Made by a program: the position numbers and the translations under genes | Shown: positions 280 to 51,619 of the stretch, piece by piece | Numbering within the stretch: position 1 is the first letter of the stretch | How the letters are laid out: every line of letters starts with the position of its first letter | Notes under the pieces: generated by a model | Seen by the model: only the letters and a program-made list of their open reading frames with translations | The model's database searches: none | What the model was told of the DNA's origin: nothing | Assembly: GCA_002307275.1 (NCBI GenBank) | Contig: DBTX01000068.1 | Location: 3,065-67,064 of the forward strand | Length of the DNA stretch: 64,000 nucleotides | Direction of reading: 5' to 3' | From: Hungateiclostridiaceae bacterium UBA1305 | GTDB taxonomy: Bacteria; Bacillota; Clostridia; Acetivibrionales; DTU013

Positions 280-292
280 TTTTCGACACCTT

Positions 293-598
293 TAATCCAC
301 ATTATCCACACTCTTATCCACACAAGAAATTCCTACAATTTACGTGCTTTGTGCCATCTTTCCACACTATTCACAGGTCTGGTTTCGACATTATTCGCAC
401 ATTATTTAGTTTCCTATTTATTTATGTATACCTTGAAACACAGGTTATCATGTACTTCTAGAAATACATCAGATTATTGAACGCTTCTTCAGAACTTCCG
501 ACATTTTATTCCATTTGTCGTATTTTTCCATAACTGCCTATAAATTTAATTTATCCGCAAGTTATAAATTGATTGTGGAAAATAAAAAGTTATCCACA
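293..598. promoter_or_regulatory. DnaA-box cluster (non-oriC type) in the convergent slt/tsaD intergenic region
   Basis: Perfect TTATCCACA at 302-310, 314-322 and 590-598. One-mismatch boxes at 293-301 (TAATCCACA), 551-559 (TTATCCGCA) and 574-582 (reverse complement TTTTCCACA). Two-mismatch boxes at 358-366, 367-375 and 391-399. Confidence 0.7.
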
Positions 599-21139: not shown

Positions 21140-22453
21140 CTAGTTCAGCAAGCCTGCAATGGCAGTGCCGATCAGTGTTCCATTGTCCACCTTCGCGAAC
21201 TCGCAGTAAATGCCTTTCGCTTCATTCGTATAGGTCTTGATATAGTGATCCAGTTTTGTCCTGAAAAGCTTCGATTTATAGAAGGTCGAGCCATCAGCGG
21301 TAATACAGGCAGGCGCACAGGGATTCCTGCCCTTTCCGGTTTTTTCAAGCACGGCTGTCAGGCTGAATGCCACATACTTTGCCGCCCTTTCAAGCACACC
21401 GTCTATGAGGTGGTAGAGAACGGTCCGATCCTCCTCATTGCCTGAAGCGTTGCAGCATACCGCCAAAGTATTACTTCCGAATGGCCAGAACAGGAAATCA
21501 TCGATCTCTTTGGATGCCAGGCTTTGAATACGCTCAAACGCAGATGCGAATTTTGATGTAATTATCCCATCACAAATAGCTTTCTTCAATACCGTATAAA
21601 TCAGCGCACCTTGGTACGCTCCCGATATCGCCTTTTCAAAAGCATAATCGCCCGGGTTAACCGTTGTTCTGTCAAGTTCCAGGTCCATTACTCCCCGCGG
21701 AGCCTTACTATAACCACCTGACTCCATATTTATCAGCATCGTACCGTCATTATTCCTGAGTTCGGGAACTTTACCGATGTTTGAACATTTCTCCGCATAA
21801 CAGATATTCGTACCGGTCCCGAGTATGAAACCGATATAGCTGTCAAAAACCCTTCCCGGTGATGACGCCTTTCCAGCCAGCAGCGTTGCAACGGTATCGT
21901 TGAGAACGATGATGCTCTTCTGCTCTGTGCAGCCACGTTTTCTGAAAACCTTCATGAGGCTTTCCCCGAGATTTTCGCCCTCCACATCCCTGACCTTCAC
22001 CTCTTTGGTGAATCTTATCAGCCTGCCATCCCTGTTCGGTAAGATTTCGACGGGATAGGAAAAACAGAAGCTGATTTTGCTGCTTCTGTGAAGTACAGGT
22101 ATAATGTAATCCGCCATTGTTTCAAAAAATTCATCCTTGGAGATTTCTCCTTTTGTACCCGGCATGGAATAGTTCTGAAAATCTTCTATCACTACTTTGC
22201 TATTTTCATCAAAATGGATCACAGCGACCCTGAAGTTGGTACCGCCGGCATCGATTGCAATGACGGGTTCATTCAGCGGCAATTCCTTTTCAACGCCGAT
22301 ATAGGTCGGGATCATCAACAGTGAAGATGAGCCGTCCAGCCCGCTTTGCATTTCGTTGGCAAATGTCTGGCAATTCTGCTCAAAGTCTACATTTGCCGCA
22401 TCCATACCATATTTGCTGAAAAAGCTTTTTACCTTTTCCTTCAAATCACTCAT
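21140..22453 (-). CDS. Hexokinase-family sugar kinase
   Basis: AIDAGGTNFRV, FCFSYP, LNDTVATLLAG, GFILGTGTNICY and INMESGGY match the hexokinase_1/_2 domain motifs. ATG at 22453 has a GGGAGG RBS with 6-nt spacing. Confidence 0.8.
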   Translation of the reverse strand: MSDLKEKVKSFFSKYGMDAANVDFEQNCQTFANEMQSGLDGSSSLLMIPTYIGVEKELPLNEPVIAIDAGGTNFRVAVIHFDENSKVVIEDFQNYSMPGTKGEISKDEFFETMADYIIPVLHRSSKISFCFSYPVEILPNRDGRLIRFTKEVKVRDVEGENLGESLMKVFRKRGCTEQKSIIVLNDTVATLLAGKASSPGRVFDSYIGFILGTGTNICYAEKCSNIGKVPELRNNDGTMLINMESGGYSKAPRGVMDLELDRTTVNPGDYAFEKAISGAYQGALIYTVLKKAICDGIITSKFASAFERIQSLASKEIDDFLFWPFGSNTLAVCCNASGNEEDRTVLYHLIDGVLERAAKYVAFSLTAVLEKTGKGRNPCAPACITADGSTFYKSKLFRTKLDHYIKTYTNEAKGIYCEFAKVDNGTLIGTAIAGLLN

Positions 22454-22489
22454 TGCGAACCTCCCACAGTTCAAGTCTTCCTATATTTA

Positions 22490-24453: not shown

Positions 24454-25053
24454 ATGAACGAGCATTATTACACAGAACAACCGACATCGGAAATCAAGGA
24501 AAAGAATTTCACAGCAGAAATCAATGGCGTTGAACTATCCTTCACATCGGTCAGCGGGGTTTTCTCGCACGAGAGCAAGGTGGACAGGGCGTCCGAGTTG
24601 CTGATCGAGACCTTCAGTCCAACCGGAAAGTCCGTGCTTGACCTCGGCTGCGGATATGGAGCTGTGGGACTATTTATAAAAGCGCGGTATCAGGGGCAGA
24701 TCGTCTGCCTTTCAGATATCAATGAAAGAGCGGTGGATTATTCACGGCGGAATGCTTCGAAGAACAGGCTGGAGGTAAAAGCCGTCAAAAGTGACCTGTA
24801 TTCTGAATTTGAAGGAACAGCCTTCGATGATATTGTGACTAATCCGCCGATTGCTGCAGGAAAGACGCTCCTGATACAGCTGATCAATGAAGCATACGAC
24901 CACCTCAATCCAAAAGGTGCGCTTTGGCTGGTCGCCTTTCACAACAAGGGCGGTTCGACATTGAAGGGAATCATGAAGAATCGTTTCGGAAATGTGGAAG
25001 ATATGGAGAAAAGCGGCGGAATAAGGGTGTATAAGTCAATTCGAATTATCTAA
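24454..25053 (+). CDS. Class I SAM-dependent methyltransferase (RsmC/RsmD-like small-domain type)
   Basis: SAM motif I VLDLGCGYG and catalytic VTNPPI (NPPY-type) motif. Confidence 0.85.
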   Translation: MNEHYYTEQPTSEIKEKNFTAEINGVELSFTSVSGVFSHESKVDRASELLIETFSPTGKSVLDLGCGYGAVGLFIKARYQGQIVCLSDINERAVDYSRRNASKNRLEVKAVKSDLYSEFEGTAFDDIVTNPPIAAGKTLLIQLINEAYDHLNPKGALWLVAFHNKGGSTLKGIMKNRFGNVEDMEKSGGIRVYKSIRII

Positions 25054-25088
25054 AAACATAATATAAAATACAAGGAGAACGGTTCAAT

Positions 25089-25220
25089 ACAAAGGGGACG
25101 GTCCGAAACCACTGAAAAAGTACTGTTTCTGAAAAAATACCAACGAAGTTATGCGGGTTTCAAGCATCAAATTTCAGAAATAAGTGACTTTTTCAGCAAT
25201 CTCGAACCGTCCCCCCTTGT
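25089..25220. repeat. Long imperfect inverted repeat (~46-nt arms, ~37-nt centre) between the convergent methyltransferase and ecfA1 genes
   Basis: The left arm acaaaggggacggtccgaaaccactgaaaaagtactgtttctgaaa pairs with the right arm tttcagaaataagtgactttttcagcaatctcgaaccgtccccccttgt. Confidence 0.65.
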
Positions 25221-25280
25221 ACTTCTATGAATCCATAATCCCAGTAGAGTGCGTTGGAATCGTCCTTTATAAAATGAATG

Positions 25281-26165
25281 TTATGATTGCTGCTGGTTAA
25301 GGTACATAGTCAGGCACTGTATCGCCTCATCCACTGTGAGGATATCCTGCGGGAAATCGTAACCTGCTTTGTTCAGTTCATACATTAGTTCTGTCACCTG
25401 TGGGACATCAAGTCCCAGGCTTTTTATTTTTTCAACGTCTTTGAAGACTTCCTTTGGAGTTCCAAGCAATATGCCTTCACCGGAATCGATCACGAGGATT
25501 CTGTCGGCTTTACTGGCTTCATCCATATGGTGGGTAATATGAACGATTGTGATGCCCTCTTCCTTATTCAACTTCCTTAAGATGCACATAACCTCTTTCC
25601 TGCCGATTGGATCAAGCATGGCAGTGGCTTCATCAAGCACGATACATTTCGGCTTCATGGCCAGGATTCCTGCGATTGCGACCCTTTGCTTCTGTCCACC
25701 CGATAGCAGATGAGGAGCATGCTTTTTATATTCCGACAAACCTATCGTTTCAAGTGCTTCATCTACACGAATCCTGATCTCCAGAGGCGGAACGCCAAGA
25801 TTTTCCGGGCCGAATGCGACATCCTCTTCAACGACCGTACCGACGATCTGATTGTCGGGGTTTTGAAAGACCATGCCCGTAGAACTTCTGACATCCCAAA
25901 GCTGTTCCTCATTCATCGTATTGATCCCATTGACAATGACGGTCCCGACATCAGGCAGAAGCAATGCGTTAAACATCTTCGCCAGTGTGGACTTCCCGGA
26001 ACCATTCCTTCCAAGTATCGCAAGGAATTCGCCCTGTCCGATCGACAGGCTCACATCCTGCAGTGCAGTTACGTCATGCCGGTCCTCACTATGCGCTTTA
26101 TATACGTAGCTCACATGATTGACTTCAATTATGTTCTTTTCACCTGACACACCAGCATACCCCAT
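25281..26165 (-). CDS. ecfA1: Energy-coupling factor transporter ATPase EcfA1
   Basis: Walker [10 protein letters not shown], signature LSGGQKQR and Walker B CIVLDEA. First gene after rplQ, as in Bacillus. Confidence 0.93.
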
Positions 26166-26270
26166 TTCAAGATCCTAAAAGTGGTAATTCAAAGCAAGAA
26201 CCGTCCCCTCTTTGAATTTAGGTGAGCTTCTCCGGCAATGACTTTGCAGGAGTGTCACCTTTCCACATAC

Positions 26271-26309
26271 AAACAAAATTAGGGATTGTACCGTAAACGG
26301 CAATCCCTA
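26271..26309 (-). terminator. Intrinsic terminator after rplQ
   Basis: On the minus strand, TAGGGATTG-N12-CAATCCCTA is followed by ATTTTGTTTG. Confidence 0.6.
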
Positions 26310-26341
26310 TTATTGTAATACAATTTTTAGCCAAGCCTTTA

Positions 26342-26869
26342 TTATTTTGTAAGTTCAAGTATTGCGGCCTCAGCTGCGTCGCCTCTTCTTGGCCCGAGTC
26401 TGTAGATTCTTGTGAATCCGCCGTTGATATCCTTGAATTTAGGTGCGATCTCATCAAACAGCTTATCAACAATGTTGATATAGTTGCCTTTTTCATCCTT
26501 AATCCTGTATACCCAGTTCATAGCTCTTCTTCTGGCATTTAGTCTTGTGGGGTTGTCAACTGTTACCATGTCAGTCTTGATTTCCCTGTCGACTACTGAA
26601 TACTTCCTGCCATTCTTTGAAGTAGCAGCCTTGGTTAACTTCTTTCCCTTGCTGTCAACTTTCACTACGCTGATTTTGATTTGCTTGGACGTTATATTGC
26701 CGATTTCCTTGATAGCCATGGCAATGAGCTTCTCAGCAATTGCCGCGACTTCCTTTGCTCTTGCTTCGGTGGTTTCTATTTTACCGTTCTGAAGTAACGC
26801 AGTAACCTGACTTTTAAGCATCGCTTTTCTCTGATCGGTTGCACGTCCCAACTTCCTCTGTGTTGGCAT
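26342..26869 (-). CDS. rplQ: 50S ribosomal protein L17 carrying a ~55-aa internal insertion
   Basis: N-terminal [14 protein letters not shown] and C-terminal [16 protein letters not shown]17 motifs. 175 aa, versus ~115-130 aa typically. Confidence 0.93.
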
Positions 26870-26896
26870 TTTAACTTTACCTCCCTAAAAACTTTT

Positions 26897-27844
26897 TCAA
26901 TCCTCGCTTGGTGCGAGTGACAATGAAAGGGCATGAAGCTTCTGGAGTACTTCTTCAAGTGACTTTCTACCCAGGTTTCTTACCTTCATCATGTCTTCTT
27001 CAGTCCTGTTGGTTAAATCCTCAACAGTATTGATACCGGCTCTTTTCAAGCAATTATATGATCTAACGGAAAGGTCAAGTTCCTCTATTGTCATTTCGAG
27101 GACCTTTTCCTTTTTGGTTTCTTCCTTCTCAACCATTATTTCCGTATGCTTTGCGTGATCCGAAAGGTCTATGAACAGGTTAAGATGTTCGCTCAATATC
27201 TTTGCTCCGAGGCTTATGGCTTCATCCGGCTTTATACTGCCGTTCGTCCAGACTTCAAGAGTAAGCTTGTCGTAATCTGTAACCTGACCTACACGGGTAT
27301 TTTCCACCGTATAGTTTACTTTCCTTACAGGCGTATATATTGAATCAACAGGTATTATTCCTATTGGTTGTCCTGTCTGCTTGTTTTTTTCCGCCGGTAT
27401 GTACCCTCTGTTCTTATTGAGTACCAGTTCCATGTAAAACCTGTGTTCCCCGTTCAATGTACAGATATGAAGATCCGGATTGAGTATTTCCACATCGGAA
27501 TCCGCCTTGATATCCCCTGCTGTAACAGCGCCTTCACCATCCGCATCGACATAAACGATCTTCGGTCCGTCACTGAAAAGCTTCATCGACAGGTTCTTTA
27601 CGTTGAGAATGATTTCAGTAACATCCTCGATAACACCAGGGACAATAGAGAACTCATGAAGTACTCCATCAACCTTGATTGAGGTCACTGCCACGCCTGG
27701 CAGAGAAGACAAAAGTATTCTTCTGAGGGAATTCCCCAAAGTGATACCATAGCCTCTTTCCAGTGGTTCAATAACAAACTTTCCGTAGCCGTTGTCTTCC
27801 GTAGACTGTACACATTCGATTTTTGGTTTTTCTATTTCGATCAA
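26897..27844 (-). CDS. rpoA: DNA-directed RNA polymerase subunit alpha
   Basis: IEIEKPKIE...[11 protein letters not shown] and the C-terminal domain [19 protein letters not shown] at 27844 has a GGGAGGG RBS with 6-nt spacing. Confidence 0.97.
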
Positions 27845-28100
27845 CAAAAACCCTCCCTTAACTGGCAATTTTGTTTATATGAGGGCAACTGATTCGCAAT
27901 CCTTATATCATATTCAGTACTTGCCATTTAATACCCTGCTGCTAAATTCTGCGGTATAGTCAGTTGCTTGCCTGGCCATGAGGAGCGGAACTTTGGTCGC
28001 GCTCCTTCTGGCCTTGTTAACTGGTCATTACCGATGGACATCGTTTCGCAGCTGCGAAGCCGAGTCCCGATTCAGGTATAAATAGAGCGGTACTTTCCTA

Positions 28101-28727
28101 CTACTTGGAATACAATTCAACAATGAGATGTTCTCTGATCGGAAGATCGATCTCTTCCCTTGCAGGAAGCGACACAACCTTGCCGCTAAGATTCTCAGCA
28201 TCAAATTCCAGCCATTTCGGGACTACCTTGCCGCCTGCAATTTCAACAATAGATTTTACTTTCTCAGAACTCTTGAATTTGTCCTTTATAGCGACGATAT
28301 CACCGGGTTCAAGAAGTATGGAAGGTATATTTACCTTCTTGCCATTGACTGTGAAATGTGCGTGTGTGACAAGCTGTCTTGCCTCAGGTCTTGATGTTGC
28401 AAGACCAAGTCTGTATACAACATTGTCCAACCTGCTTTCAAGTATCTTCAAGAGGTTTTCACCAGTAATACCCTTTTGCTTGACAGCCATTCCGAAGTAA
28501 CCTCTGAACTGGCTTTCAAGAATTCCGTAGAACCTTCTTGCTTTCTGCTTTTCACGCAGCTGAATACCGTATTCTGACATTTTCTTTTTTTGTTGTCCAT
28601 GTTGTCCTGGAGCATATGCTCTTTTAGACACAGCACATTTGTTCGTATAGCACCTTTCGCCTTTGAGGAAGAGCTTTTCGCCTTCTCTGCGGCAAAGCCT
28701 GCAAGATGCATCAGTATATCTTGCCAT
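28101..28727 (-). CDS. rpsD: 30S ribosomal protein S4
   Basis: [26 protein letters not shown] zinc-type N-terminus and an S4 RNA-binding domain. Confidence 0.97.
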
Positions 28728-28746
28728 CTATTCTAACACCTCCATA

Positions 28747-29151
28747 TTACACTCTTCTTCTCTTGGGTGGCCTACATCCGTTATGGGGAATAGGCGTTAC
28801 GTCCTTGATAAGGCTCACATCGAGTCCAGCAGCCTGCAAAGCTCTAATAGCAGCTTCTCTTCCAGCGCCTGGTCCTTTTACATAAACTTCAACGGTCTTG
28901 AGACCATGTTCCATTGCAGCTTTTGATGCAGTTTCTGCAGCTGTCTGTGCAGCAAACGGTGTGCTCTTTTTTGATCCCCTGAAGCCCAAACCGCCTGCGC
29001 TGGCCCATGAAAGCGCATTTCCTGCTGTATCGGTGATTGTTACTATTGTATTATTAAATGATGAACGGATATGTGCAGCACCACGTTCAATATTTTTACG
29101 TTCCCTTTTTTTCCTGGTGACTCTCTTAACACCAGCAGTTTTTGTTGCCAT
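28747..29151 (-). CDS. rpsK: 30S ribosomal protein S11
   Basis: [18 protein letters not shown]...[14 protein letters not shown]. Confidence 0.97.
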
Positions 29152-29169
29152 TCGGTCGTCAACCTCCTT

Positions 29170-29547
29170 TTATACCGTTTTCTTTCTTTGAACTCCTACA
29201 GTCTTCTTAGGGCCTTTTCTTGTCCTTGCATTGGTCTTGGTCCTCTGACCCCTCAGCGGCAAGCCTTGCCTGTGCCTTCTGCCTCTGTAGCAGCCGATTT
29301 CGATCAATCTCTTGATATTAAGGGAAACTTCCCTTCTGAGGTCGCCTTCTACCTTGTATTCTTTGTCAATAGTTTCTCTGAGTCTGCTTATCTCATCATC
29401 CGTCAAATCCCTAACTCTTGTGTCTGGGTTTACAGCCGTCTTTTTTAATATCTCATTGGCTTTACTTCTTCCCAAACCAAAGATGTAAGTCAATCCAATT
29501 TCCACCCTTTTTTCTCTGGGCAGATCAACTCCGGCAATACGTGCCAT
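29170..29547 (-). CDS. rpsM: 30S ribosomal protein S13
   Basis: [29 protein letters not shown] at 29547 has a GGAGGTG RBS; the ORF-track extension to 29694 is non-homologous. Confidence 0.96.
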
Positions 29548-29892
29548 CTTGTCAAACACCTCCAAATTAATTCCTAAACCGCTTTTGCAACCTGAGCTGA
29601 ATTTACATTGTAAAATCAGCTGTAATGGTAAATTTGCTTCATATTGTTTCCGAGGCAATACACTCAAATCCGGCAAATACCTTTTAAAGTACATGCCCTA
29701 AGTATACGGGCCTTTTATTTATCAATCAACACCTGGATCATGTTTGGAAACCCGAACATGCAGCCGCTCCAAGGTGGTCAATTCAATGTCAGAAAGGGAA
29801 ATTGACAGTGCGCAGCGCGTACTCTATACAAGAATGCCACTTAACGCATATTCATTTACATGAATATCACTGAGACTGCAAATCAAGCCAAA

Positions 29893-29921
29893 ATTATATC
29901 ACAACATATTAAGTAATACAA
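29893..29921 (-). promoter_or_regulatory. Strong internal sigma-A promoter just downstream of rpmJ (alpha-operon promoter)
   Basis: Minus strand reads TTGTAT (29916-29921)-17 nt-TATAAT (29893-29898) with a TG extended -10 (TGaTATAAT). Confidence 0.55.
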
Positions 29922-29957
29922 GGCCTAATCCTTCCAACCATCAATTATCCATCTTTC

Positions 29958-30071
29958 CTATCCCTGTTTCTGTTTGTGCTTTGGGTTTTCACAAATTACC
30001 ATTACTCTGCCTTTTCTTCTTATAATCTTGCATTTCTCACACATAACTTTTACAGACGGTTTTACTTTCAT
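29958..30071 (-). CDS. rpmJ: 50S ribosomal protein L36 (zinc-binding form)
   Basis: Hand translation gives [37 protein letters not shown] with a GGAGGG RBS. Too short for the ORF track. Confidence 0.93.
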
Positions 30072-30090
30072 TTTAAACCCTCCTATAGAT

Positions 30091-30309
30091 TTATTTCGCT
30101 CTCCACGTTATTCTTCCACGGGTTAGATCATATGGCGACAACTCAAGTGTCACCTTGTCACCCGGTAAAATTCTTATGAAATTCATTCTGAGCTTGCCTG
30201 AAATGTGAGCAAGCACCTTGTGACCATTCTCAAGTTCTACCTGAAACATCGCATTAGGCAATGCTTCAACAATTTTTCCCTCAACTTCAATTACATCATC
30301 CTTCGACAA
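30091..30309 (-). CDS. infA: Translation initiation factor IF-1
   Basis: [41 protein letters not shown]. Confidence 0.97.
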
Positions 30310-30345
30310 AACTCAAAACCTCCTTTTAAAGCAACTGCCATATCA

Positions 30346-30621
30346 TTATTTATTTTGATGTATATCCAGGCCCGCAAGAGCTTTACGCATTTCAGCATTC
30401 GATACCCTTATGCCGCTCTTCAGTTTTTCCTCAACACTTTGCACCTTTTCATCCGTTGCTTTGAGATGCTTGATTTTCTTCTTTTTAGGTTTCTCGACCC
30501 TGCGAAGATCGCCATCCGAAATTTCCACAAAGAGATCATCGATCACTCTGATTACAACAAATTTTCTTCCAGTGTCCCTACCTGCCTGGGAAATAACTAC
30601 TTGACCTAAAGCTATACTCAA
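30346..30621 (-). CDS. KOW-domain RNA-binding protein (the small protein commonly found between map and infA in Clostridia)
   Basis: GQVVISQAGRDTGRKFVV KOW motif followed by a Lys-rich tail. The start overlaps the map stop codon. Confidence 0.75.
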   Translation of the reverse strand: MSIALGQVVISQAGRDTGRKFVVIRVIDDLFVEISDGDLRRVEKPKKKKIKHLKATDEKVQSVEEKLKSGIRVSNAEMRKALAGLDIHQNK

Positions 30622-31400
30622 AAACCCTCACCTCTGAGTTTTGTCAATATGAACGGTTCGTCATCTGTTATGCAAATCGTGTTTTCATAGTGCGCAGAAA
30701 ATCTGCCGTCTATTGTAACCATTGTCCATTTGTTATCGAGCGGTTTTACTTCATAACTGCCCAGATTGACCATGGGTTCTATGGCTATTGTCATCCCTGC
30801 TTCAAGTCTTGGGCCTCTTTCACGCGTTACATAATTGGGTATTTGGGGAGGTTCCCAAAGTTCTCTTCCTATGCCGTGTCCTACATAATCGCGCACAACG
30901 GAATAACCGACTTGTTCGGCACATTGCTGAACAGCTCTGGAAATATCCACAATCCGGTTCCCCTTCACAGCGTTTTTCATACCCTCACGGAAGCTTTGTT
31001 CTGTTACCTTAATGAGTTTCAACGCCTCCTCAGAGACTTTCCCGACAGGGAACGTCCTTGCAGCATCACCGTGAAATCCGCCATAACAGGCTCCTATGTC
31101 AACACTTATAATATCTCCATCTTTTAACTCTCTTAAACCCGGAATACCATGTATAACTTCATTGTTTACTGATGCGCAGATTGCAGCAGGAAAATCAATC
31201 CCGCCTCGTATTGCACATTTTACACCTTTGAAGGTAGGGGTGGCATTCTGGCTTAATATATACCGTTCCGCTATATTGTCAAGCTCCTTCGTAGTGATGC
31301 CGGGTCTTACCGCTTCTTCGATCCGCTTGAGCGTACCTGCTACGATCTCACCTGCATTGCCCATTAATTCAATTTCCGCTTTTGACTTTATCGATATCAT
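30618..31400 (-). CDS. map: Type I methionine aminopeptidase
   Basis: Metal ligands in the contexts GDIISVDIG, GHGIG and IEPM. Confidence 0.95.
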   Translation of the reverse strand: MISIKSKAEIELMGNAGEIVAGTLKRIEEAVRPGITTKELDNIAERYILSQNATPTFKGVKCAIRGGIDFPAAICASVNNEVIHGIPGLRELKDGDIISVDIGACYGGFHGDAARTFPVGKVSEEALKLIKVTEQSFREGMKNAVKGNRIVDISRAVQQCAEQVGYSVVRDYVGHGIGRELWEPPQIPNYVTRERGPRLEAGMTIAIEPMVNLGSYEVKPLDNKWTMVTIDGRFSAHYENTICITDDEPFILTKLRGEGF

Positions 31401-32047
31401 TTCTCCAAACCCAATACCTTATATACTTCCGTCTTGGTGTCCTCAATCCTGATCTTTCCCTCTGCTACCACCAATTTGCCTTTTGCCTTGTAATAGCCGA
31501 TCAATGGTTCTGTCTGGTTATGATAGGTTTTCAGCCGGTTGATCACCGTTTCTTCACGGTCATCTTCCCTCTGTACCAGCTTTGTTCCACAGACCAGGCA
31601 AATACCTTTTTGGGTTTCTTCCATGTAATCAACATGATAACTTGCATTACATTCAGGACAAACTCTTCTTCCTGAAAGCCTTTTGGTGATCACTTCATCA
31701 TTGACGGCAAGATCCAGCACGCAATCCAATGCTGTATCCATTTCAGCCAATATGTTATCCAGACATTCCGCCTGAGCTATTGTACGGGGAAACCCATCGA
31801 GTATGAACCCTTTTTTGCAGTCATCCTGCTGCAGTCTGTCTTTTACGATCCCTATCGTAACTTCATCTGGGACAAGAGCGCCCTTGTCGATGTACTCCTT
31901 TGCAAGCTTGCCCAAAGTTGTTCCACCTTTTATATTGCTTCTGAATATATCACCGGTGGAAATGTGGGGAACCTGAAGCTTCTCTGCCAGATTCACCGCC
32001 TGTGTCCCTTTACCCGCACCTGGTGCACCCAATATAACAAGTTTCAT
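31397..32047 (-). CDS. adk: Adenylate kinase (Zn-binding LID)
   Basis: MKLVILGAPGAGKGTQA P-loop and LID CPECNASYH...CLVCGTKL. The ATG at 32047 was chosen over the ORF-track start at 32095. Confidence 0.96.
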   Translation of the reverse strand: MKLVILGAPGAGKGTQAVNLAEKLQVPHISTGDIFRSNIKGGTTLGKLAKEYIDKGALVPDEVTIGIVKDRLQQDDCKKGFILDGFPRTIAQAECLDNILAEMDTALDCVLDLAVNDEVITKRLSGRRVCPECNASYHVDYMEETQKGICLVCGTKLVQREDDREETVINRLKTYHNQTEPLIGYYKAKGKLVVAEGKIRIEDTKTEVYKVLGLEK

Positions 32048-32206
32048 TTCACTCTCCCATAGGCATTTGTTGTCGGCAAAAGCCTTCCCGCGCAAATTTC
32101 GCTACGATTTCGCTTTACACGCAAATTTTGATGCAATATCGCGTGCATTAAAGCCGGTTCGGCAGCTATACCGAGTTGATATAACTGCTCGAGCCGATTA
32201 TATAAT

Positions 32207-33505
32207 TTATTCCAGGAATCCTTTGTAATGTCTCATCAGCATCTGTGATTCAATCTGCTTCACAGTATCGAGAGCAACGCCGACAAGAATCAGTACGGCC
32301 GTACCGCCAAACCACAGTCCTGATATCCCGGTTATATTACCGACTATAATCGGGAATATTGTAATTACTGCAAGGAACAAGCCGCCAAACCATGTGATTC
32401 TGTTAAGTACCTTGGAAATATAGTCGGAGGTGGCTTTACCCGGTCTGTAGCCCGGTATGAAACCGCCGTTCTTCTTCATGTTGTTCGCAATCTCAATCGG
32501 GTTGAACTGAATCACCGAATAGAAGAACGTGAAGAACATGATCATTAACGCATAAACTATAGCATAAAGCCAATTCTTTTCCGGATTTTTAAACAGGTTT
32601 ACAAACCAATTGTCCGAATTTGCAAAAAACATTGTAACAATCGTAGACGGAAACATCATGATGGACATGGCAAATATGATTGGAATAACACCAGCCAGGT
32701 TAACCTTGATTGGCAGATGTGTACTCTGTCCGCCATACATCTTTCTTCCAACGACACGCTTTGCATATTGGATCGGTATCCTTCTCTCCGCCTGTTGTAC
32801 CCATATGACGCCTGCAATGATGGCTACAAATACAGCAAGTATGAGTATGATAACGATGATCCCGAACACGCCTGTGCCGAAGTTGCCGAGTTTGTAGTTG
32901 TCAATGATCGATAGTGCACCCTGCGGTCCTCTTGAAACAATACCGGCAAATATGATCAGCGATATACCGTTTCCGATACCGAATTCGTTGATTTGTTCAC
33001 CAAGCCACATAAGGAACGCAGTACCTGCAGTAAAGGTAAGAACGATTGTCAGGAAGCTCCAAACAGAACCACCGTCGCTTACGCCTCCCTGAGCCTGCAA
33101 TGTGATATAAAGCGCAACAGCCTGCACGAATCCAAGTACGACTGTGCCGTACCTCACATACTGCTGTATGATCTTTCTCCCTTCGTCGCCTTCCTTCTGC
33201 AATCTTTCCAGTGAAGGGATGGCAACGGTCAACAGCTGCATGATAATTGACGAGTTGATGTATGGTGTAATACTCATTGCAAAGATTGTTGCAAGTTTGA
33301 AAGCGCCGCCTGATACGATATCAAGGAATCCGCCAAGTGAACCGGCCGAGTTAAGCAGATCGGAAAACTTCTGTGCGTCAATTCCAGGATTAGGTATATG
33401 TGAGCCTATCCTGTATACAATAAGCATTGCTACGGTGAATAGGATCTTTTTGCGCAAATCAGGGATTTTCCACGCATTACGCAGAGTCTCCAGCATTCCG
33501 CCCAT
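32207..33505 (-). CDS. secY: Preprotein translocase subunit SecY
   Basis: 10-TM protein with typical SecY sequence (GIMPYI-like ITPYINSSIIMQLL, PGYRPGK). Confidence 0.97.
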   Translation of the reverse strand: MGGMLETLRNAWKIPDLRKKILFTVAMLIVYRIGSHIPNPGIDAQKFSDLLNSAGSLGGFLDIVSGGAFKLATIFAMSITPYINSSIIMQLLTVAIPSLERLQKEGDEGRKIIQQYVRYGTVVLGFVQAVALYITLQAQGGVSDGGSVWSFLTIVLTFTAGTAFLMWLGEQINEFGIGNGISLIIFAGIVSRGPQGALSIIDNYKLGNFGTGVFGIIVIILILAVFVAIIAGVIWVQQAERRIPIQYAKRVVGRKMYGGQSTHLPIKVNLAGVIPIIFAMSIMMFPSTIVTMFFANSDNWFVNLFKNPEKNWLYAIVYALMIMFFTFFYSVIQFNPIEIANNMKKNGGFIPGYRPGKATSDYISKVLNRITWFGGLFLAVITIFPIIVGNITGISGLWFGGTAVLILVGVALDTVKQIESQMLMRHYKGFLE

Positions 33506-33506
33506 A

Positions 33507-33950
33507 CTATACCACCTCTACCTTTCCTCCTGCAGCTTCAATTTTCTCAGAAGCTGTCTTTGTGAATCTTGCTGCCTGAACAGTAAGCTTCTTTGTAAGT
33601 ACGCCGTTTCCAAGAACAGAAACGCCGTCATACAATTTCTTTGCCATTCCCTTTTCCTTAAGGAGTTCGCCGTTAACAACGGTACCATCCTCAAACACAT
33701 TCAAGGATGACACGTTTATTTCTTCATAAACATTTGCAAAGTCTTTATTGTTGAAGCCTCTCTTGGGTACTCTTCTATAGAGAGGCATCTGTCCGCCTTC
33801 GAAACCTGGTCTTACTCCGCCGCCGGCACGAGCATTCTGACCCTTGTGGCCGTGACCGCCGGTCTTTCCGTTACCGGAACCAACGCCTCTGCCTTTTCTG
33901 GTCGATGCTTTTTTCGCACCCGCTACAGGATGCAATTCATGTAGTTTCAA
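33507..33950 (-). CDS. rplO: 50S ribosomal protein L15
   Basis: [35 protein letters not shown]. Confidence 0.97.
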
Positions 33951-33964
33951 CTTCTACACCTCCC

Positions 33965-34144
33965 TTATATCTCTTCTACGGATACCAAGTGCGATACCGT
34001 TTTTATCATTCCTCTGATCTGAGGATTATCCAGTTGTTCAACTGAACTTCTGATCTTATGCAAACCAAGAGCCTTTACTGTTGCCTTCTGGTTTGCCTTT
34101 GATCTGTTAATGCTTTTCACAAGTATAATTTTAAGTTTAGCCAC
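33965..34144 (-). CDS. rpmD: 50S ribosomal protein L30
   Basis: Hand translation from GTG at 34144 gives VAKLKIILVKSINRSKANQKATVKALGLHKIRSSVEQLDNPQIRGMIKTVSHLVSVEEI with a GGAGG RBS. Not in the ORF track. Confidence 0.92.
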   Translation of the reverse strand: MAKLKIILVKSINRSKANQKATVKALGLHKIRSSVEQLDNPQIRGMIKTVSHLVSVEEI

Positions 34145-34156
34145 TATAGTATCCTC

Positions 34157-34657
34157 CTAACCCAGTATTTCTTCAACGGTTTTACCGCGAAGTCTGGCTA
34201 CCTCATCAACTGTTTTAAGCTGAGAAAGTGCCTGAATAGTTGCGTTAACCATGTTGATAGGGTTGTTGGACCCGAGTGACTTCGTCCTGATATCGTGGAT
34301 ACCAGCCAATTCGAGAACCGCCCTTACAGGGCCGCCTGCGATAACACCAGTACCAGGTCCTGCTGGTTTCAGAAGTACTCTTCCTGCGCCATACACACCG
34401 ATTGCTTCATGCGGGATCGTAGTCTCAACAAGCGGAATCTTTATCAGATTCTTCTTTGCATCGTCTATTCCCTTTCTGATAGCATCAGGAATTTCAGTAG
34501 CCTTGCCCATTCCGCTTCCGATATAGCCGTTTTCATCACCGACTACAACGAGAGCACTAAAACGGAAGTTTCTACCGCCCTTTACAACTTTGGTGACACG
34601 TCCTATTTTAACGACCTTTTCTTTAAGATCCAATGCTCCAGCATCAATACGCTGCAA
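34157..34657 (-). CDS. rpsE: 30S ribosomal protein S5
   Basis: [27 protein letters not shown]. Confidence 0.97.
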
Positions 34658-34689
34658 TTTTCATCCCTCCTCATTCAATTACTTGTTCC

Positions 34690-35058
34690 CTAAAAATCAA
34701 GTCCTGCTTCTCTTGCACCTTCAGCGAGCTCCTTGATTCTACCATGATACAGATAGCCGCCTCTGTCGAAAACAACCTGCTTAACGCCCTTTTCAACAGC
34801 CTTCTGAGCGATCAGTTTGCCGACTTCCTTGGCTGCTTCCTTGTTTCCGCCAGTGGCGAGTTTGCCCTTTAATGCTTCATCAAGTGTGGATGTCGCGACA
34901 AGAGTAGTTCCTGTCGTATCATCTATAATCTGCACGTATATATTGTTTAAGCTTCTGAAAACATTGAGCCTTGGACGCTCAGGTGTGCCCTCGATTTTCT
35001 TGCGCACCCTGTCATGTTTCCTCAGCCTGATTTCGTTTTTGTTAGGCTTGTTAATCAT
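34690..35058 (-). CDS. rplR: 50S ribosomal protein L18
   Basis: [32 protein letters not shown]...[24 protein letters not shown]. Confidence 0.97.
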
Positions 35059-35073
35059 TTTGTCAACTCCCTC

Positions 35074-35622
35074 CTACTTCTTGCCTTTGGCGCCGGTCTT
35101 ACCTTCTTTGCGCCTGATTACCTCGTAATCATACTTGATGCCCTTGCCCTTATAGACTTCAGGCGGTCTCTTAATCCTGATCTTCGCGGCAAATTCACCA
35201 ACCTCCTGCTTGTCACAACCCTTGACGATAAGCTTGTTCGGTGTGGGAACATCAACTGAAATCCCATCCGGCTCATCCATTTCTACCGGGTGTGAATAGC
35301 CAAGAGTTAAAACGAGTTTCTTTCCCTGCTTTTGAGCCCTATAGCCGACACCGTTTATTTCAAGTGTCTTTTCAAAACCTTTAGTGACTCCATCCACCAT
35401 GTTGCTCACCAGAGTCCTTGTCAATCCATGAAGGGATCTATGCATCTTGCTGTCGGAAGGCCTCTCAACGATGACCTTTGTGCCGTCTTTTTTAATTATC
35501 ATATCCTTGTGCAGTTCTTTTGTCAAAGTGCCCTTGGGACCTTTTACAGTCACAATGCTATCTTTTATATCGACATTTACATCTGCGGGTATTTCAATAG
35601 GCATTTTACCTATTCTTGACAT
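35074..35622 (-). CDS. rplF: 50S ribosomal protein L6
   Basis: [12 protein letters not shown]...VKGPKG...GVGYRA. Confidence 0.97.
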
Positions 35623-35683
35623 TTAAAGCACCTCCTGTTCTTAATATTACGAGCTCTTTCGAACCCTTTTCAGAATCTACTTG

Positions 35684-36082
35684 TTACCAGATAAACGCAA
35701 GTACTTCCCCGCCTACGCCTTCAGCTCTTGCTTTCTTATCCGTCATGATTCCCCTTGATGTGGAAATAACTGCGACGCCAAGTCCCCCAAGAACCTTCGG
35801 CAGTTCGTCCTTGTTCGCATAAACCCTTAAACCGGGCTTGCTGATTCTCTTGATACCAGTTATTACTTTCTGTTTGTTTGCAGCGTATTTAAGTGAAATC
35901 CTTATAAGTCCCTGCTTGTCATCTTCTATTAGCTCGACGTTTTTAACAAATCCTTCGTCCAATAATATACGGGCAATATCCTTTTTAATATTCGACGACG
36001 GGATGTCAACTGTTTCGTGCTTTGCTGAGCTGGCATTTCTGACTCTTGTCAACATGTCAGCGATAGCGTCTGTAATATGCAT
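35684..36082 (-). CDS. rpsH: 30S ribosomal protein S8
   Basis: [14 protein letters not shown]...GGEVLAFIW. Confidence 0.97.
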
Positions 36083-36107
36083 ATGTTTAACCTCCTTCCA
36101 AAGATTG

Positions 36108-36293
36108 TTACCAGCTGGCTTTCTTCACGCCAGGTATCTGCCCTTTATACGCCAGAAGTCTGAAGCACAAACGGCATACTCCGAACTTCCTCATGTACGC
36201 ATGAGGCCTACCGCAAAGCTTACATCTGCTATATGCCCTGGTACTGTATTTGGCGACTCTTTGCTGCTTAATTATCATTGATTTCTTTGCCAC
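36108..36293 (-). CDS. rpsN: 30S ribosomal protein S14 type Z (zinc-binding, 61 aa)
   Basis: [12 protein letters not shown]...[25 protein letters not shown] at 36293 has an AGGAGG RBS; the ORF-track extension to 36392 runs into the repeat array. Confidence 0.93.
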
Positions 36294-36311
36294 GTTTATC
36301 CTCCTTTCATC

Positions 36312-36524
36312 GGGGACATTCCTTGGTATGGACTTTGAAGGTGTGTCCCCATTCCTTGACCGACATTCCTTGGTATTGGACATCAGGGACATTCCTTGGT
36401 ATGGACTTTGAAGGTGTGTCCCTATTCCTTGTTAAGGTGTGTCCCCATACCTTGACCGTCATTCCTTGGTAATGGACTCATCTTCAGGGACATTCCTTTT
36501 TCAGGATCTTTGAAGGTGTGTCCC
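36312..36524. repeat. Tandem array (~2.5 units of ~88 bp) with three GGGACATTCCTT...AAGGTGTGTCCC hairpins, in the rplE-rpsN spacer
   Basis: Near-identical hairpins at 36312-36350, 36396-36432 and 36487-36524. They are interleaved with attccttgaccg(a/t)cattccttggta segments. Confidence 0.8.
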
Positions 36525-36548
36525 TGTACCTTGAATTCCCCTAACCTT

Positions 36549-37091
36549 TTAACCCTGAGTGAACGGCATTCCCATAAGTCTCAGAAGCTCTTTTGCTTCC
36601 TCATCTGTCTTGGCAGTAGTAACAAACACGATATCCATGCCTCTTACCTTATCTACCTTATCATACTCAATTTCCGGGAACATAATTTGTTCCTTCACAC
36701 CCATTGAGAAATTTCCTCTTCCGTCAAAGGAATTTACCGATATCCCCCTGAAGTCTCTTACTCTTGGAAGTGCTACATTGAACAGTTTGTCTACGAATTC
36801 ATACATTTTGCTGCTGCGAAGTGTAACCTTGCAGCCGATATTCATACCCTGTCTCAGCTTGAAGTTCGCGATGGATTTCTTAGCTTTCGTAATAACCGGC
36901 CTTTGACCCGTTATGATTGCCAGATCATTCACAGCTGCGTCCATTGCCTTCGGGTTGTCTTTTACTTCACCTACACCCATATTCAATACTACTTTTTCAA
37001 GTTTGGGTATCTGCATTGTGCTGCTATATTTAAACTTTGCCTGCATTGCAGGAATTACTTCCCCAATATATTTATCCTTAAGCCTGGCCAT
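36549..37091 (-). CDS. rplE: 50S ribosomal protein L5
   Basis: [16 protein letters not shown]...NMGVGE...RGMDI. Confidence 0.97.
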
Positions 37092-37122
37092 TAGACCTTA
37101 ACCTCCTTTCAAGAAGAATATC

Positions 37123-37470
37123 CTAGTCTTCTTTTGATTCTTTTTGTGTGTCAATGATCTCTCCGCATCTTTTACATACACGATCCTTCTGACCGTCTTC
37201 ATGCACAAGCTTGGAGATCTTGGTCGGAGCCTTGCACCTCTCGCATATCAACATAACCTTTGAGCTGTTGATCGGGGATTCCTGATGGATGATTCCGCCA
37301 GCCTGGTACCTGCTTCTGGGTTTCTTATGCTTTGTCGACATGTTTACGCCCTCTATGAGAACCATCATATCGGCCGGGTTGACTGAAAGCACCTTGCCTT
37401 TTTTACCCTTATCCTTGCCTGAGAGTACGTAAACATTATCTCCCTTTTTAACATGTATATTATTTGCCAA
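37123..37470 (-). CDS. rplX: 50S ribosomal protein L24 with a C-terminal CxxC...CxxC zinc-ribbon-like segment
   Basis: HVKKGDNVYVLSGKDKGKKGKV KOW motif. TTG at 37470 follows a GGAGAGGAGG RBS; the ORF-track extension to 37533 reads into the repeat array. Confidence 0.93.
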   Translation of the reverse strand: MANNIHVKKGDNVYVLSGKDKGKKGKVLSVNPADMMVLIEGVNMSTKHKKPRSRYQAGGIIHQESPINSSKVMLICERCKAPTKISKLVHEDGQKDRVCKRCGEIIDTQKESKED

Positions 37471-37487
37471 TTTAAGCCGCCTCCTCT

Positions 37488-37630
37488 CCTTGGATGTTTT
37501 AGAGGTAATTCGCGCCACTGTGGCGCTAAACATCCGCCTTGGATGTTTTAAATGAAATCCGCGTCATGGACGCTAAACATCCGCCTTGGATGTTTTAAAT
37601 GAAATCCGCACTATAAAGCGCTAAACATCC
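37488..37630. repeat. Three tandem ~47-bp hairpin units in the rplN-rplX spacer
   Basis: CCTTGGATGTTTTA...GCG-loop-CGCTAAACATCCG occurs at 37488-37536, 37537-37583 and 37584-37630. Each unit pairs GGATGTTT with AAACATCC. Confidence 0.85.
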
Positions 37631-37634
37631 TACC

Positions 37635-38003
37635 TTATAGAACTTCTGGTGCGAGTGACAGTATCTTCATATAATCCTTGTCTCTCAGCTCTCTCGCAAC
37701 AGGGCCAAAAATACGTGTTCCTTTGGGGTTTTTATCTTCTTTTATGATAACTGCAGCGTTCTCATCAAACTTGATATACGAACCATCAGGCCTTCTTACG
37801 CCCTTCCTGGTACGCACTATGACACATTTGACTACTTCACCTTTTTTTACAACTCCGCCGGGTGTTGCACTTTTAACCGAAGCAACTATTACGTCACCTA
37901 TATTGGCATATTTCCTCCAAGAGCCGCCAAGCACCTTGATGCACATCATTTCTTTGGCTCCTGTGTTATCTGCTGATTTTACCATCGACTGAACCTGTAT
38001 CAT
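37635..38003 (-). CDS. rplN: 50S ribosomal protein L14
   Basis: [18 protein letters not shown]... Confidence 0.97.
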
Positions 38004-38046
38004 GCCAGTACCTCCTTCCAGTTATACTTCACTTTGAAATCGGCTG

Positions 38047-38304
38047 CTATTTAGCCTTTTCTACGATTTCAACGAGCCTCCACCTTTTTTCCTTGCTAAG
38101 CGGGCGAGTCTCCATAACTTTAACTTTATCACCGTTCTTGCATTCGTTATTTTCATCATGAGCCTTCAGTTTGTAAGTCCTCTTGACGATTTTCTTGTAC
38201 AAGGGGTGTTTTACTCTTGTCTCTATAGCAACAACAATCGTTTTGTCCATCTTGTCGCTGACTACCTTGCCGATCCTGGTTTTCCTTAATGCTCTATCTT
38301 CCAA
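38047..38304 (-). CDS. rpsQ: 30S ribosomal protein S17
   Basis: [22 protein letters not shown]...[13 protein letters not shown]. Confidence 0.96.
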
Positions 38305-38368
38305 GCAGGATGCCTCCTTTCATCTAATAAAATCTCGGGAGCATCAAGCTCCTTTCGATTTTGGCCGG

Positions 38369-38572
38369 TTAAACTTTAACTGCCTTTATTTCTCGTTCCT
38401 TTATTATTGTTTTGACCCGAGCGATTGATTTCTTGCAATCATTTAACCTCATAGGATTTTCCAGTTGGTTCGTGACAAGCTGGAAACGTAGTTTGAACAG
38501 CTCGGATTTAAGCTCGCTCAATTCCTTCTGAAGCTCTTCCTGCGTCTTATCTCTCATTTCACTGGCTTTCAT
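38369..38572 (-). CDS. rpmC: 50S ribosomal protein L29
   Basis: [31 protein letters not shown]. The start at 38572 overlaps the rplP 3' end. Confidence 0.95.
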
Positions 38573-38999
38573 TTGCGTCACCACCCATTTCAGTATCGCG
38601 GGCTATGAATTTACACTTGATAGGAAGTTTGTGCATTGCAAGTCTCATAGCTTCCTTTGCCGTTTCCTCCGTCATTCCCGCAATTTCAAATAATACTCTT
38701 CCCGGCTTGACTACTGCCACCCAGTATTCAGGTGAGCCCTTACCACTACCCATGCGGGTTTCGGCTGGCTTCTTCGTAACCGGCTTGTCAGGGAATATTT
38801 TTATCCATACCTGACCGCCCCTCTTTGTAAAACGTGTCATTGCTATTCTGGCAGCTTCAATCTGATTACTGGTGATCCAGGCTGGTTCCATTGCCTGAAG
38901 TCCGAATTCTCCGTTTGATATGAAGTTGCCTCTGGAAGCAACACCTGTCATTCTGCCTCTGTGTACTCTTCTGCGCTTTACTCTTTTCGGCATTAACAT
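38559..38999 (-). CDS. rplP: 50S ribosomal protein L16
   Basis: [17 protein letters not shown]... Confidence 0.97.
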
Positions 39000-39670
39000 T
39001 ATCGATCGCCTCCTTCCGCTTTCTTTTCCTTCTTGACAGCGGGAAGAACTTCACCCTTATATATCCAGGCCTTGACACCGAGTTTTCCGTAAGTTGTATT
39101 TGCTTCGGCAAAACCATAGTCGATATCCGCCCTGAGTGTCTGAAGAGGTATGGTTCCCTCGTGATAGTGCTCTGTCCTGGCAATTTCAGCGCCGCCAAGT
39201 CTGCCGGCCACTGCGGTTTTGATACCCTTTGCTCCAAGCTTCATTGTCCTTGTCATTGCCTGCTTCATTGCTCTCCTGAAGGAAATTCTCTTTTCGAGCT
39301 GGCCGGCGATATTCTCGGCAACAAGCTGCGCATCCATCTCAGGTGACTTGATTTCAGTAATGTTTATAAGGACGCTTTTGCCTGTAAGTGCTTCAACTTC
39401 CTTACGAAGTTCTTCAATTCCGGCTCCGCCCTTGCCTATTACTAGACCGGGTTTGGCTGTATGGACATTTACCTTGATCTTGTTTGCAGCTCTTTCGATT
39501 TCAATCCTGGAAATGCCGGAAATATATAATTTCTTCTTAATGAACCTTCTGATCTTAACATCTTCAACCAAAAGATCACCAAAGTTTTTCTTATTGGCAT
39601 ACCATTTGGTGTCCCAGTCCTTGATAATTCCTATTCTCAATCCATGTGGATTTACCTTCTGGCCCATCAT
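38999..39670 (-). CDS. rpsC: 30S ribosomal protein S3
   Basis: [13 protein letters not shown], plus KH and S3 C-terminal domains. Confidence 0.97.
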
Positions 39671-39686
39671 CCAACCTCCTTCTGGC

Positions 39687-40169
39687 TTATTTTCTTTCCT
39701 TCAATACTACAGTGATATGACTTGTCCTCTTCCTGATCCTATTTGCGCTTCCCTTTGCTCTGGGCATAATCCTTTTCAGTGTCGGTCCCTGGGTTGCATA
39801 TGCTTCAGCTACAAAAAGCTCGTCTCTGTTGAGTCCTTTGCTTGGGTCGTTTGCTGCATTGGCCTCAGCTGATTTCAAAAGCTTCAACAATAACTCCGAA
39901 GCGGCCTTGGGTGTATATTTCACGATACCGTAAGCCTCGTCTATGTTTTTGTCTTTTATAAGATCCAGAACGATTTTAACCTTTCTTGATGAGATCCTGG
40001 CGTGGTTGAGCACTGCTCTTCCTTCATCCTTGCCTATTCCAAGCACCTTTTTCTCCTTTTTCGTCAGGAGAGCAGGCTTCTGAAACAGTCTGTGTGTCGT
40101 GTTAAAATCATCCAGTATTTGATCCTTTTCTTTAAGAAGTTCTTCTTTTGATCTTACCTTCTTTTCCAA
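39687..40169 (-). CDS. rplV: 50S ribosomal protein L22 with a ~45-aa N-terminal extension
   Basis: The L22 core starts near [24 protein letters not shown] at 40169 has an AAAGGAGG RBS with 8-nt spacing. Confidence 0.9.
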
Positions 40170-40243
40170 CTGGAATTCCTCCTTTCGGCATTAAGCTTGT
40201 TACTTGGCATGATGTGACCGTTTTGATTTCTCAAAGCCGGTCA

Positions 40244-40528: not shown

Positions 40529-40618
40529 TTGGTAGTAGTCCTCCTTTCCTTACTCCGGAAAGCACCTGCAGCCTGACTGACAATCTTGTCGATGCTGCTG
40601 ACCGTTCCGCAATGTTAA

Positions 40619-41452: not shown

Positions 41453-41513
41453 TTCTTCTCACTCCTATCTGAAATGCGTGATAAGCACTAACACATTCCT
41501 ATTTCACAAATTT

Positions 41514-42490: not shown

Positions 42491-42515
42491 AATCGCTTCC
42501 TCCTCCCTATCCGTA

Positions 42516-51616: not shown

Positions 51617-51619
51617 TGA

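Follow-up and report, generated by a model that had tools for sequence, protein, structure and literature searches.

The 64,000-nucleotide stretch of DNA analysed here, part of contig DBTX01000068.1 of Hungateiclostridiaceae bacterium UBA1305 and referred to below as the window, carries a dense group of DnaA boxes immediately behind the 3′ end of tsaD (gcp, ydiE), the gene for a subunit of the tRNA t6A37 threonylcarbamoyltransferase. Judged from its sequence and that of its relatives, the group at 280–598 is well supported as a genuine DnaA-binding cluster of the kind known from Bacillus subtilis as DBC[gcp-ydiF] (DBC, DnaA-box cluster), because of the box statistics, the purifying selection on the boxes and their fixed position and orientation. 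It is probably an extra-oriC cluster, the clostridial counterpart of DBC[gcp-ydiF], and one of several sinks for ATP-DnaA. Both the binding of DnaA at 280–598 and its effect on initiation are proposed by analogy with B. subtilis.

Three of the boxes are perfect (TTATCCACA at 302–310, 314–322 and 590–598, + strand) and three have a single mismatch (TAATCCACA at 293–301 and TTATCCGCA at 551–559 on the + strand, TTTTCCACA at 574–582 on the − strand). A sequence-only reading of the stretch had placed both sets at these coordinates, which were verified; where it spoke of at least three boxes with two mismatches, five were counted, starting at 280, 358, 367, 391 and 524 and all on the + strand. Except for the box at 574–582, orientation is uniform throughout the module 280–598. 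Six boxes with no more than one mismatch are found in the 310-bp spacer, against ~0.11 expected per 310 bp from the remaining window (29 such boxes in the 64 kb, the other 23 being spread over 63.7 kb). Perfect boxes number four in the window where 0.71 are expected, and none of 100 dinucleotide-preserving shuffles reached four; the fourth, at 47411, is a solitary match in what is apparently coding sequence. Rival 310-bp stretches of the window have at most three boxes with no more than one mismatch, those being stretches that overlap the tsaD spacer. What characterizes a DBC-type cluster, several consensus boxes that include a perfect one, within ~50–300 bp and far above background, is found at 280–598. 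Chance accumulation is ruled out by the shuffles together with the 1584 background windows introduced below, none of which was positive. The claim that the clustering goes beyond chance therefore holds, and no comparable cluster was seen elsewhere within the 64-kb window or in those background windows.

Only the density of boxes would favour the cluster being oriC itself, a second origin or an accident of composition, and this reading is almost certainly wrong. Every 2-kb bin of the window has a negative + strand GC skew, and in 35 of 36 relatives the skew does not change sign across the module. As had been claimed, neither a dnaA probe nor the gene map revealed a dnaA or dnaN homologue in the 64-kb window. 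No run of DnaA-trio repeats was seen beside the boxes on reading the sequence, though no dedicated search for them was made. Neither a switch of skew nor adjacency to dnaA/dnaN, two of the features by which oriC is recognized alongside DnaA-trios and an AT-rich unwinding element, is found at 280–598, and the earlier description of a secondary cluster, lying inside a replichore and outside oriC, is the right one. The convergent genes had also raised the idea of dif/Ter or a terminus, which was dropped as the skew has no switch.

Conservation behind tsaD in related genomes

For the comparison with relatives, the TsaD of the window was scanned against one genome per GTDB species. This gave 80 loci with 62–91% identity, 78 of them usable. 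A locus was counted as positive if the 500 bp past the tsaD stop held at least three boxes with no more than one mismatch, of which at least one was perfect, and 1584 other 512-bp windows from the same related loci served as background. The nearest TsaD relatives are those of uncultured Bacillota metagenome-assembled genomes (MAGs), followed by Hungateiclostridiaceae MAGs and by Ruminiclostridium cellobioparum and R. hungatei (75–79%), which places the window in this section of the Clostridia. A cluster behind tsaD is present in 47 of the 78 loci, in contrast to 0 of the 1584 background windows. The positives comprise nearly all loci whose TsaD is at least 67% identical to that of the window plus L052 and L064, and also L075, a Thermohalobacteraceae MAG (Tissierellia), and L078, Fervidicella metallireducens (Clostridiaceae). 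Their boxes are strongly directional: 207 read TGTGGATAA in the sense of tsaD and 44 read the opposite way.

In the spacer alignment the boxes are 90–100% conserved and the DNA between them 30–60%. Since conservation of the boxes exceeds that of the intervening DNA, purifying selection on the boxes is indicated. The sequence-only reading had looked to related genomes for conservation of the boxes, and it is there both in the count of loci and in the alignment columns. By the same alignment the whole ~300-bp spacer is a conserved module, beyond a set of scattered boxes. In the Ruminiclostridium sub-clade the internal sequence differs, while a proximal inverted perfect box, phased weak boxes and a triplet of boxes at the far end are kept. 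This triplet recurs in the Ruminiclostridium-type loci and in L052, L064, L075 and L078.

Parts of the module

The window tsaD (590–1639, − strand; Pfam TsaD, E = 5.6e-98) converges on the 3′ end of a gene for an SLT-domain protein (1–279, + strand; lytic transglycosylase-like, a cell-wall hydrolase), which is cut by the window edge and whose full-length orthologue of ~210–240 aa is a conserved convergent neighbour in relatives. Read from tsaD along the − strand, the module consists of the box on the stop codon, the inverted box, a weak box with a hairpin, a palindrome, a further weak box, a weak pair, a 35-bp spacer, the triplet and the motif GGTGTCGnAAA.

The presumed high-affinity core is the triplet at 293–322, TAATCCACA, TTATCCACA, (ctc), TTATCCACA, on the + strand. 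Its three boxes have the same orientation with start-to-start distances of 9 and 12 bp, and it starts 13 bp past the stop of the SLT-like gene. In the spacer alignment, 20 close relatives have this triplet without change, spacing included. Seen from tsaD, it forms the far end of the module as TGTGGATAA-N3-TGTGGATAn-TGTGGATTA (322–293; 12 + 9 bp). Next to it, and abutting the stop of the SLT-like gene, is the two-mismatch box TTTTCGACA at 280–288 (+ strand), which reads TGTCGAAAA on the − strand within the conserved GGTGTCGnAAA.

The occurrence of the triplet is not confined to this setting. A metagenome collection was scanned for the triplet alone, as TGTGGATAA N3 TGTGGA N3 TGTG, which yielded at least 120 loci (L083–L202). 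Among the matches listed, at least 17 have a tsaD ending 50–300 bp upstream, and the orientation is the same in 17 of 17; the TsaD of these loci is 50–77% identical to that of the window and the contigs are 36–60% GC. Also among the matches listed, tsaD is the commonest single neighbour of the triplet, the others including jag/khpB with trmE (at least eight), a GyrB-family gene (at least five) and dnaA–dnaN spacers (at least three). With its many unrelated addresses, the triplet has the look of a docking unit of general use and high affinity for DnaA, a common design of DnaA site for which tsaD is, by this count, a favoured address. The probes for tsaC and dnaA served only as tblastn baits; that for B. 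subtilis TsaD is 99% identical to the database protein. The general form of the triplet is TGTGGATAA-N3-TGTGGAnAn-TGTGnATAA, and in some metagenome contigs it is present twice, at a distance of 76 bp; its further neighbours in the matches listed include prfC, pta, a YitT-family gene and an O-acetylhomoserine sulfhydrylase-like gene.

At the other end of the module, the perfect box at 590–598 (+ strand) lies on the 3′ end of tsaD. Its − strand reads TGT GGA TAA, that is Cys-Gly-stop, and the stop codon, the complement of 590–592, falls inside the box, in agreement with the overlap that had been noted from the sequence. A perfect box at the same offset, −8 from the tsaD stop, is present in ~20 related species. 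In these species and the window the C-terminus of TsaD, Cys-Gly, thus appears to be dictated by a putative DNA-binding site. The partner of this box is the inverted one-mismatch box TTTTCCACA at 574–582 (− strand), 7 bp away, which is ~90–100% conserved and is found at offset +8 in most relatives. The other one-mismatch box of this region, TTATCCGCA at 551–559 (+ strand), falls in variable alignment columns, lacks conservation among relatives and could be a chance or lineage-specific match.

Between the two ends are weaker boxes in the orientation of the core. Two of them, CTTTCCACA and CTATTCACA, stand back to back at 358–375 (+ strand), their starts being 44 and 53 bp from the core. This pair is nearly invariant across 21 sequences, and among 46 genome loci a box with at least seven of nine matches occurs at offset −44 in 80% and at −53 in 59%. 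The two-mismatch box TTATTCGCA at 391–399 (+ strand) is moderately conserved, and TTTTCCATA at 524–532 (+ strand), also with two mismatches, is conserved and overlaps the T-run of the hairpin.

That hairpin, CGACA...TGTCG (499–520) followed by a T-run (499–527 in all), is terminator-like on the + strand, in the sense of the SLT-like gene. With −4.6 kcal/mol the window stem is weak, and the terminator scan did not flag it. The counterparts in L008, L009, L010, L016, L018 and L022 are more stable (−7 to −12 kcal/mol), their stems being extended by compensatory changes, and the one in L009 was flagged as a terminator. From these comparisons it looks like an intrinsic terminator of the SLT-like gene, ~220 nt past its stop, in which case the triplet, the weak pair and the palindrome would sit in the 3′ untranslated region of that gene. 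Termination in both directions is suggested for L008, L010 and L018, where an A-run precedes the symmetric hairpin and a T-run follows. The hairpin also accounts for the conserved TGTCG at 516–520. The Spo0A heptamer TGTCGAA has two perfect copies in the module on the − strand, at 281–287 and 381–387. Relatives, however, keep TGTCG alone at two positions, one of them being a hairpin half, and on this pattern the copies are probably not Spo0A sites.

A 20-bp palindrome, ATGTAyTTnnnnAArTACAT, at 449–470 is restricted to the sub-clade of the window. The window has a single copy, and 16 relatives likewise have exactly one per locus, always in the module. Its sequence variation has no consistent fit to RNA pairing on either strand, and it is probably the binding site of a dimeric protein. 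An operator shared by a regulon was considered and rejected, as neither the window nor ~1 Mb of related loci yielded a second good copy.

The 35-bp conserved spacer at 323–357 (− strand AAAG-C.CGTAAAaTGTAGGAwTTTCTTG, a G+C patch and then an A/T-rich part) has 70–100% column identity in 21 sequences. In relatives it has a weak promoter-like pair; TGGAAA-16-TAAAAT (9/12) was flagged in L009 only and did not appear in the scan of the window. Such −35/−10-like matches inside the module, the conserved A/T-rich TAAAAT element just upstream of the triplet and the clade-specific palindrome, which could be an operator, would fit a promoter or operator under DnaA control for a small RNA or peptide encoded in the spacer, comparable to the activation of sda by DnaA in B. 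subtilis. This is highly improbable: the matches reach only 9/12 and are no more frequent than in shuffled sequence. The one open reading frame of appreciable length in the spacer, 20 codons at 469–531 (− strand), was discarded, its fourth codon being a stop in L001, the closest relative. RNAalifold gave −12.3 and −3.8 kcal/mol for the two strands with covariation terms near zero and so no conserved structure, the short terminator-like hairpin being the sole exception in the module. Rfam, searched at a permissive threshold, returned nothing better than E = 0.26, which is chance level.

The Bacillus subtilis counterpart and the role of the cluster

In B. subtilis, stable binding of DnaA in vivo was mapped to eight intergenic regions, one of them gcp-ydiF (Ishikawa 2007, PMC2533591). 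The site there is between convergent 3′ ends and thus unlike a transcriptional regulator, the cluster downstream of gcp was described as ‘highly conserved’ in Bacillus, Geobacillus and Oceanobacillus, and its role was left unclear (PMC2533591). In vitro, gcp-ydiF has ~10 sites with a Kd of 0.15 µM for ATP-DnaA and 0.33 µM for ADP-DnaA, the preference for the ATP form being 16-fold at 55 nM (Smith & Grossman 2015, PMC4447404). Deletion of all six non-origin clusters leads to early initiation (Okumura 2012, PMC3245932). A 2026 review has nothing newer on the gcp-ydiF cluster. The sequence-only reading had pointed to a B. subtilis cluster next to gcp/ydiE, and this proves correct, as DnaA binds gcp-ydiF both in vivo and in vitro (PMC2533591, PMC4447404).

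Past tsaD, the B. subtilis locus has three boxes of one orientation (+26, +37 and +48, the last perfect) and then eight that face the other way, in the TGTGGATAA sense (+61 to +242), with a back-to-back 9-bp pair among them. They are bracketed by hairpins, the ydiF terminator being flagged by the scan and the one on the tsaD side being seen by eye. The two loci, whose TsaD proteins are 54.5% identical, have much in common. In both, the spacer begins right after the tsaD stop and separates convergent genes, there are ~10 boxes including a perfect one, most boxes read TGTGGATAA in the direction of tsaD, the inverted box or boxes are at the tsaD-proximal end, a back-to-back 9-bp pair is present and tsaD is co-directional with replication. 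The differences are that nothing apart from the boxes can be aligned, that the neighbour is the ABC-F gene ydiF in one and the SLT-like gene in the other, and that the B. subtilis boxes lie between hairpin terminators, whereas in the window a box is on the tsaD stop and a lone terminator-like hairpin is inside the module. The exact 12 + 9 bp triplet, the weak pair at 44/53 bp and the palindrome are absent from the B. subtilis locus.

The supposition that Bacilli and this genome share the tsaD neighbourhood is accordingly upheld for position and main orientation, in B. subtilis and in Clostridia and Tissierellia loci too. Of the comparison proposed between the regions downstream of tsaD in Clostridia and Bacilli, position, layout and orientation are shared but the alignment does not extend beyond the boxes. 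The cluster had also been called ancient. In favour of this is its presence at the same site in Bacilli, Clostridia and Tissierellia; against it, distribution is patchy (31 of the 78 loci are without a cluster) and repeated gain is possible. As to common descent, position and orientation are shared with B. subtilis, the triplet is shared only within Clostridia/Tissierellia and many intermediate lineages have no cluster. An ancient origin of the tsaD-linked cluster is plausible.

By the mechanism favoured here, DnaA, preferentially ATP-DnaA, would dock on two anchors, the triplet at 293–322 and the inverted pair at 574–598, and would then spread cooperatively over the same-orientation weak boxes at 358–375, 391–399 and 524–532. 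The result would be a large nucleoprotein complex in the spacer that needs no promoter. Its likely global effect would be to hold a share of the cellular ATP-DnaA, as one of several sinks that jointly delay initiation at oriC, and the capacity of the sink would double after the fork copies the site. For the cluster of the window, titration or replication control is suggested, weakly, by the analogy with B. subtilis.

Several observations tell against a sink. Single deletion of DBC[gcp-ydiF] leaves oriC/terC at 0.99 of the wild-type ratio, and when it alone is re-inserted the six-fold deletion is not rescued (1.35 versus 1.37), whereas DBC[yydA-yycS] does rescue it (PMC3245932). The 31 loci without a cluster include every named Clostridium species sampled; most of the negative loci have a co-directional gene 0–90 bp after tsaD and hence no spacer. 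Where present, the cluster keeps to the 3′ end of tsaD whatever gene lies downstream, and since a pure sink could sit anywhere, titration leaves this position unexplained.

Position is at the centre of a different, rather unlikely proposal, that the cluster acts locally in cis. DnaA on and behind the stop codon would be a roadblock or insulator for tsaD and the convergent gene. It would shape 3′-end formation or read-through and couple t6A capacity to the status of the initiator, with titration as a by-product. The link to the tsaD 3′ end is found in three Bacillota classes despite varied neighbours (SLT-like, ydiF or co-directional genes), orientation relative to tsaD was fixed in all of the 17 metagenome loci mentioned above, and in ~20 species tsaD ends in a perfect box, which supplies its stop and the two codons before it. 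In the window, the terminator scan found no strong intrinsic terminator for tsaD in the spacer, and most of the module, lying past the SLT-like gene and ahead of the hairpin, is probably transcribed. B. subtilis DnaA also binds and represses ywlC (PMC2533591). On the other side, the B. subtilis locus has the flagged ydiF terminator and the visible hairpin on the tsaD side, and no effect of DnaA on transcription at gcp-ydiF was detectable, expression there being weak (PMC2533591). Moreover, no tsaC was found by tblastn to adjoin a triplet among the at least 120 metagenome loci listed. That gene bears on the matter because ywlC is tsaC, another gene of the t6A pathway.

A bolder form of the local idea sees in the cluster not chiefly a DnaA sink but a DnaA complex of ancient origin, fixed in place at the 3′ end of tsaD, through which the state of the initiator would be tied to synthesis of t6A37, a universal tRNA modification. 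It is put forward because B. subtilis DnaA is found at tsaD and at ywlC, because there is a cluster at trmE-jag beside other tRNA-modification genes and because the link to tsaD persists across three classes, and it is decidedly unlikely. The palindrome would in that case bind an accessory factor, by analogy with integration host factor (IHF) at datA. No discussion of a link between DnaA and t6A synthesis was found in the literature searched. To our knowledge, gcp and ywlC were without known function when the sites were mapped in 2007.

Returning to the preferred reading, an extra-oriC cluster of the DBC[gcp-ydiF] type, other known systems offer partial parallels. DBC[thdF(trmE)-jag] and the other B. 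subtilis clusters are the same kind of element, and the 12 + 9 bp triplet adjoins jag/khpB and trmE in at least eight of the at least 120 metagenome loci. The other B. subtilis clusters, however, are in promoter regions and some regulate the adjacent gene, whereas that of the window is between two 3′ ends. Escherichia coli datA and DARS1/DARS2 are likewise non-origin clusters with strong and weak boxes, and they modulate the pool of active DnaA. At datA there is an IHF element between the boxes, where the window module has its palindrome, a putative protein-binding element. The activity of datA is an IHF-dependent hydrolysis of DnaA-bound ATP and that of DARS a release of nucleotide; B. subtilis is without IHF, Hda, datA and DARS (2026 review). 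An oriC-proximal cluster of Streptomyces coelicolor is again Gram-positive and outside oriC, with a reported influence on replication; as far as it is described where cited (PMC3245932), it differs in phylum and in the context of its box consensus and has no link to tsaD. As a separate observation, several strong non-origin DnaA sites of B. subtilis flank genes for anticodon-loop modification, namely tsaD (gcp), ywlC and trmE/mnmG.

Chromosomal setting and significance

Nearly all genes of the window are on the − strand. Together with the uniformly negative skew, this implies that forks traverse the window from right to left and meet tsaD before the cluster; judged by GC skew, tsaD is co-directional with replication. 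The S10-spc-alpha ribosomal-protein cluster (rplB, secY, rpoA) is at ~25–43 kb on the − strand, which is the leading strand, as are the genes tig-clpP-clpX-lonB within 25000–43500. In Firmicutes the S10-spc-alpha cluster is usually origin-proximal, and this suggests that the DnaA-box cluster is on the origin-proximal part of its replichore with oriC to the right.

The proximity of the S10-spc-alpha cluster, 25–43 kb away on the leading strand, has a bearing on the idea that the DnaA complex anchors an origin-proximal domain, for instance with ParB/SMC, instead of buffering DnaA. An architectural role of this kind was proposed as an alternative for the B. subtilis clusters (PMC2533591 and PMC3245932), and the six-fold deletion there is synthetic with deletion of spo0J (PMC3245932). 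For the window module it is nevertheless very improbable, as no parS-like or other architectural motifs were found in the module and the B. subtilis site is ~0.63 Mb from oriC. We know of no experiment that has shown an architectural role for such clusters.

Other features of the window lie apart from these questions. A low-GC stretch at 44000–58000 (34–37% compared with ~44% GC) has polysaccharide-synthesis functions, encoding a Wzx-like flippase, a Wzy_C ligase/polymerase, a glycosyltransferase of family 8 and a Bac_transf priming transferase, and is adjoined by a gene for an SLH-domain protein (59646–61763); the stretch is probably a variable cell-surface glycan island. A 444-aa protein encoded at 21140–22474 (−) has Hexokinase_1 and Hexokinase_2 Pfam domains, a family far commoner in eukaryotes than in Clostridia.

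The kind of element, and its association with gcp, is already published for Bacillaceae. In the literature searched nothing was found that extends the tsaD cluster to Clostridia or Tissierellia, or that deals with the 12 + 9 bp triplet or the extended module. DBC[gcp-ydiF] is among the eight strongest DnaA-binding regions of B. subtilis and strongly prefers ATP-DnaA, and yet its single deletion is without measurable effect. Given the same place and orientation in Clostridia and Tissierellia, the fixed triplet and the phased weak boxes, it can be argued that the position itself is under selection. Clusters of this sort can mislead origin predictors that are based on box density. The comparative material serves as a lever for discerning which boxes, spacings and partners are indispensable, and Ruminiclostridium species, as tractable anaerobes, would let models of titration, local action and architecture be weighed against one another.

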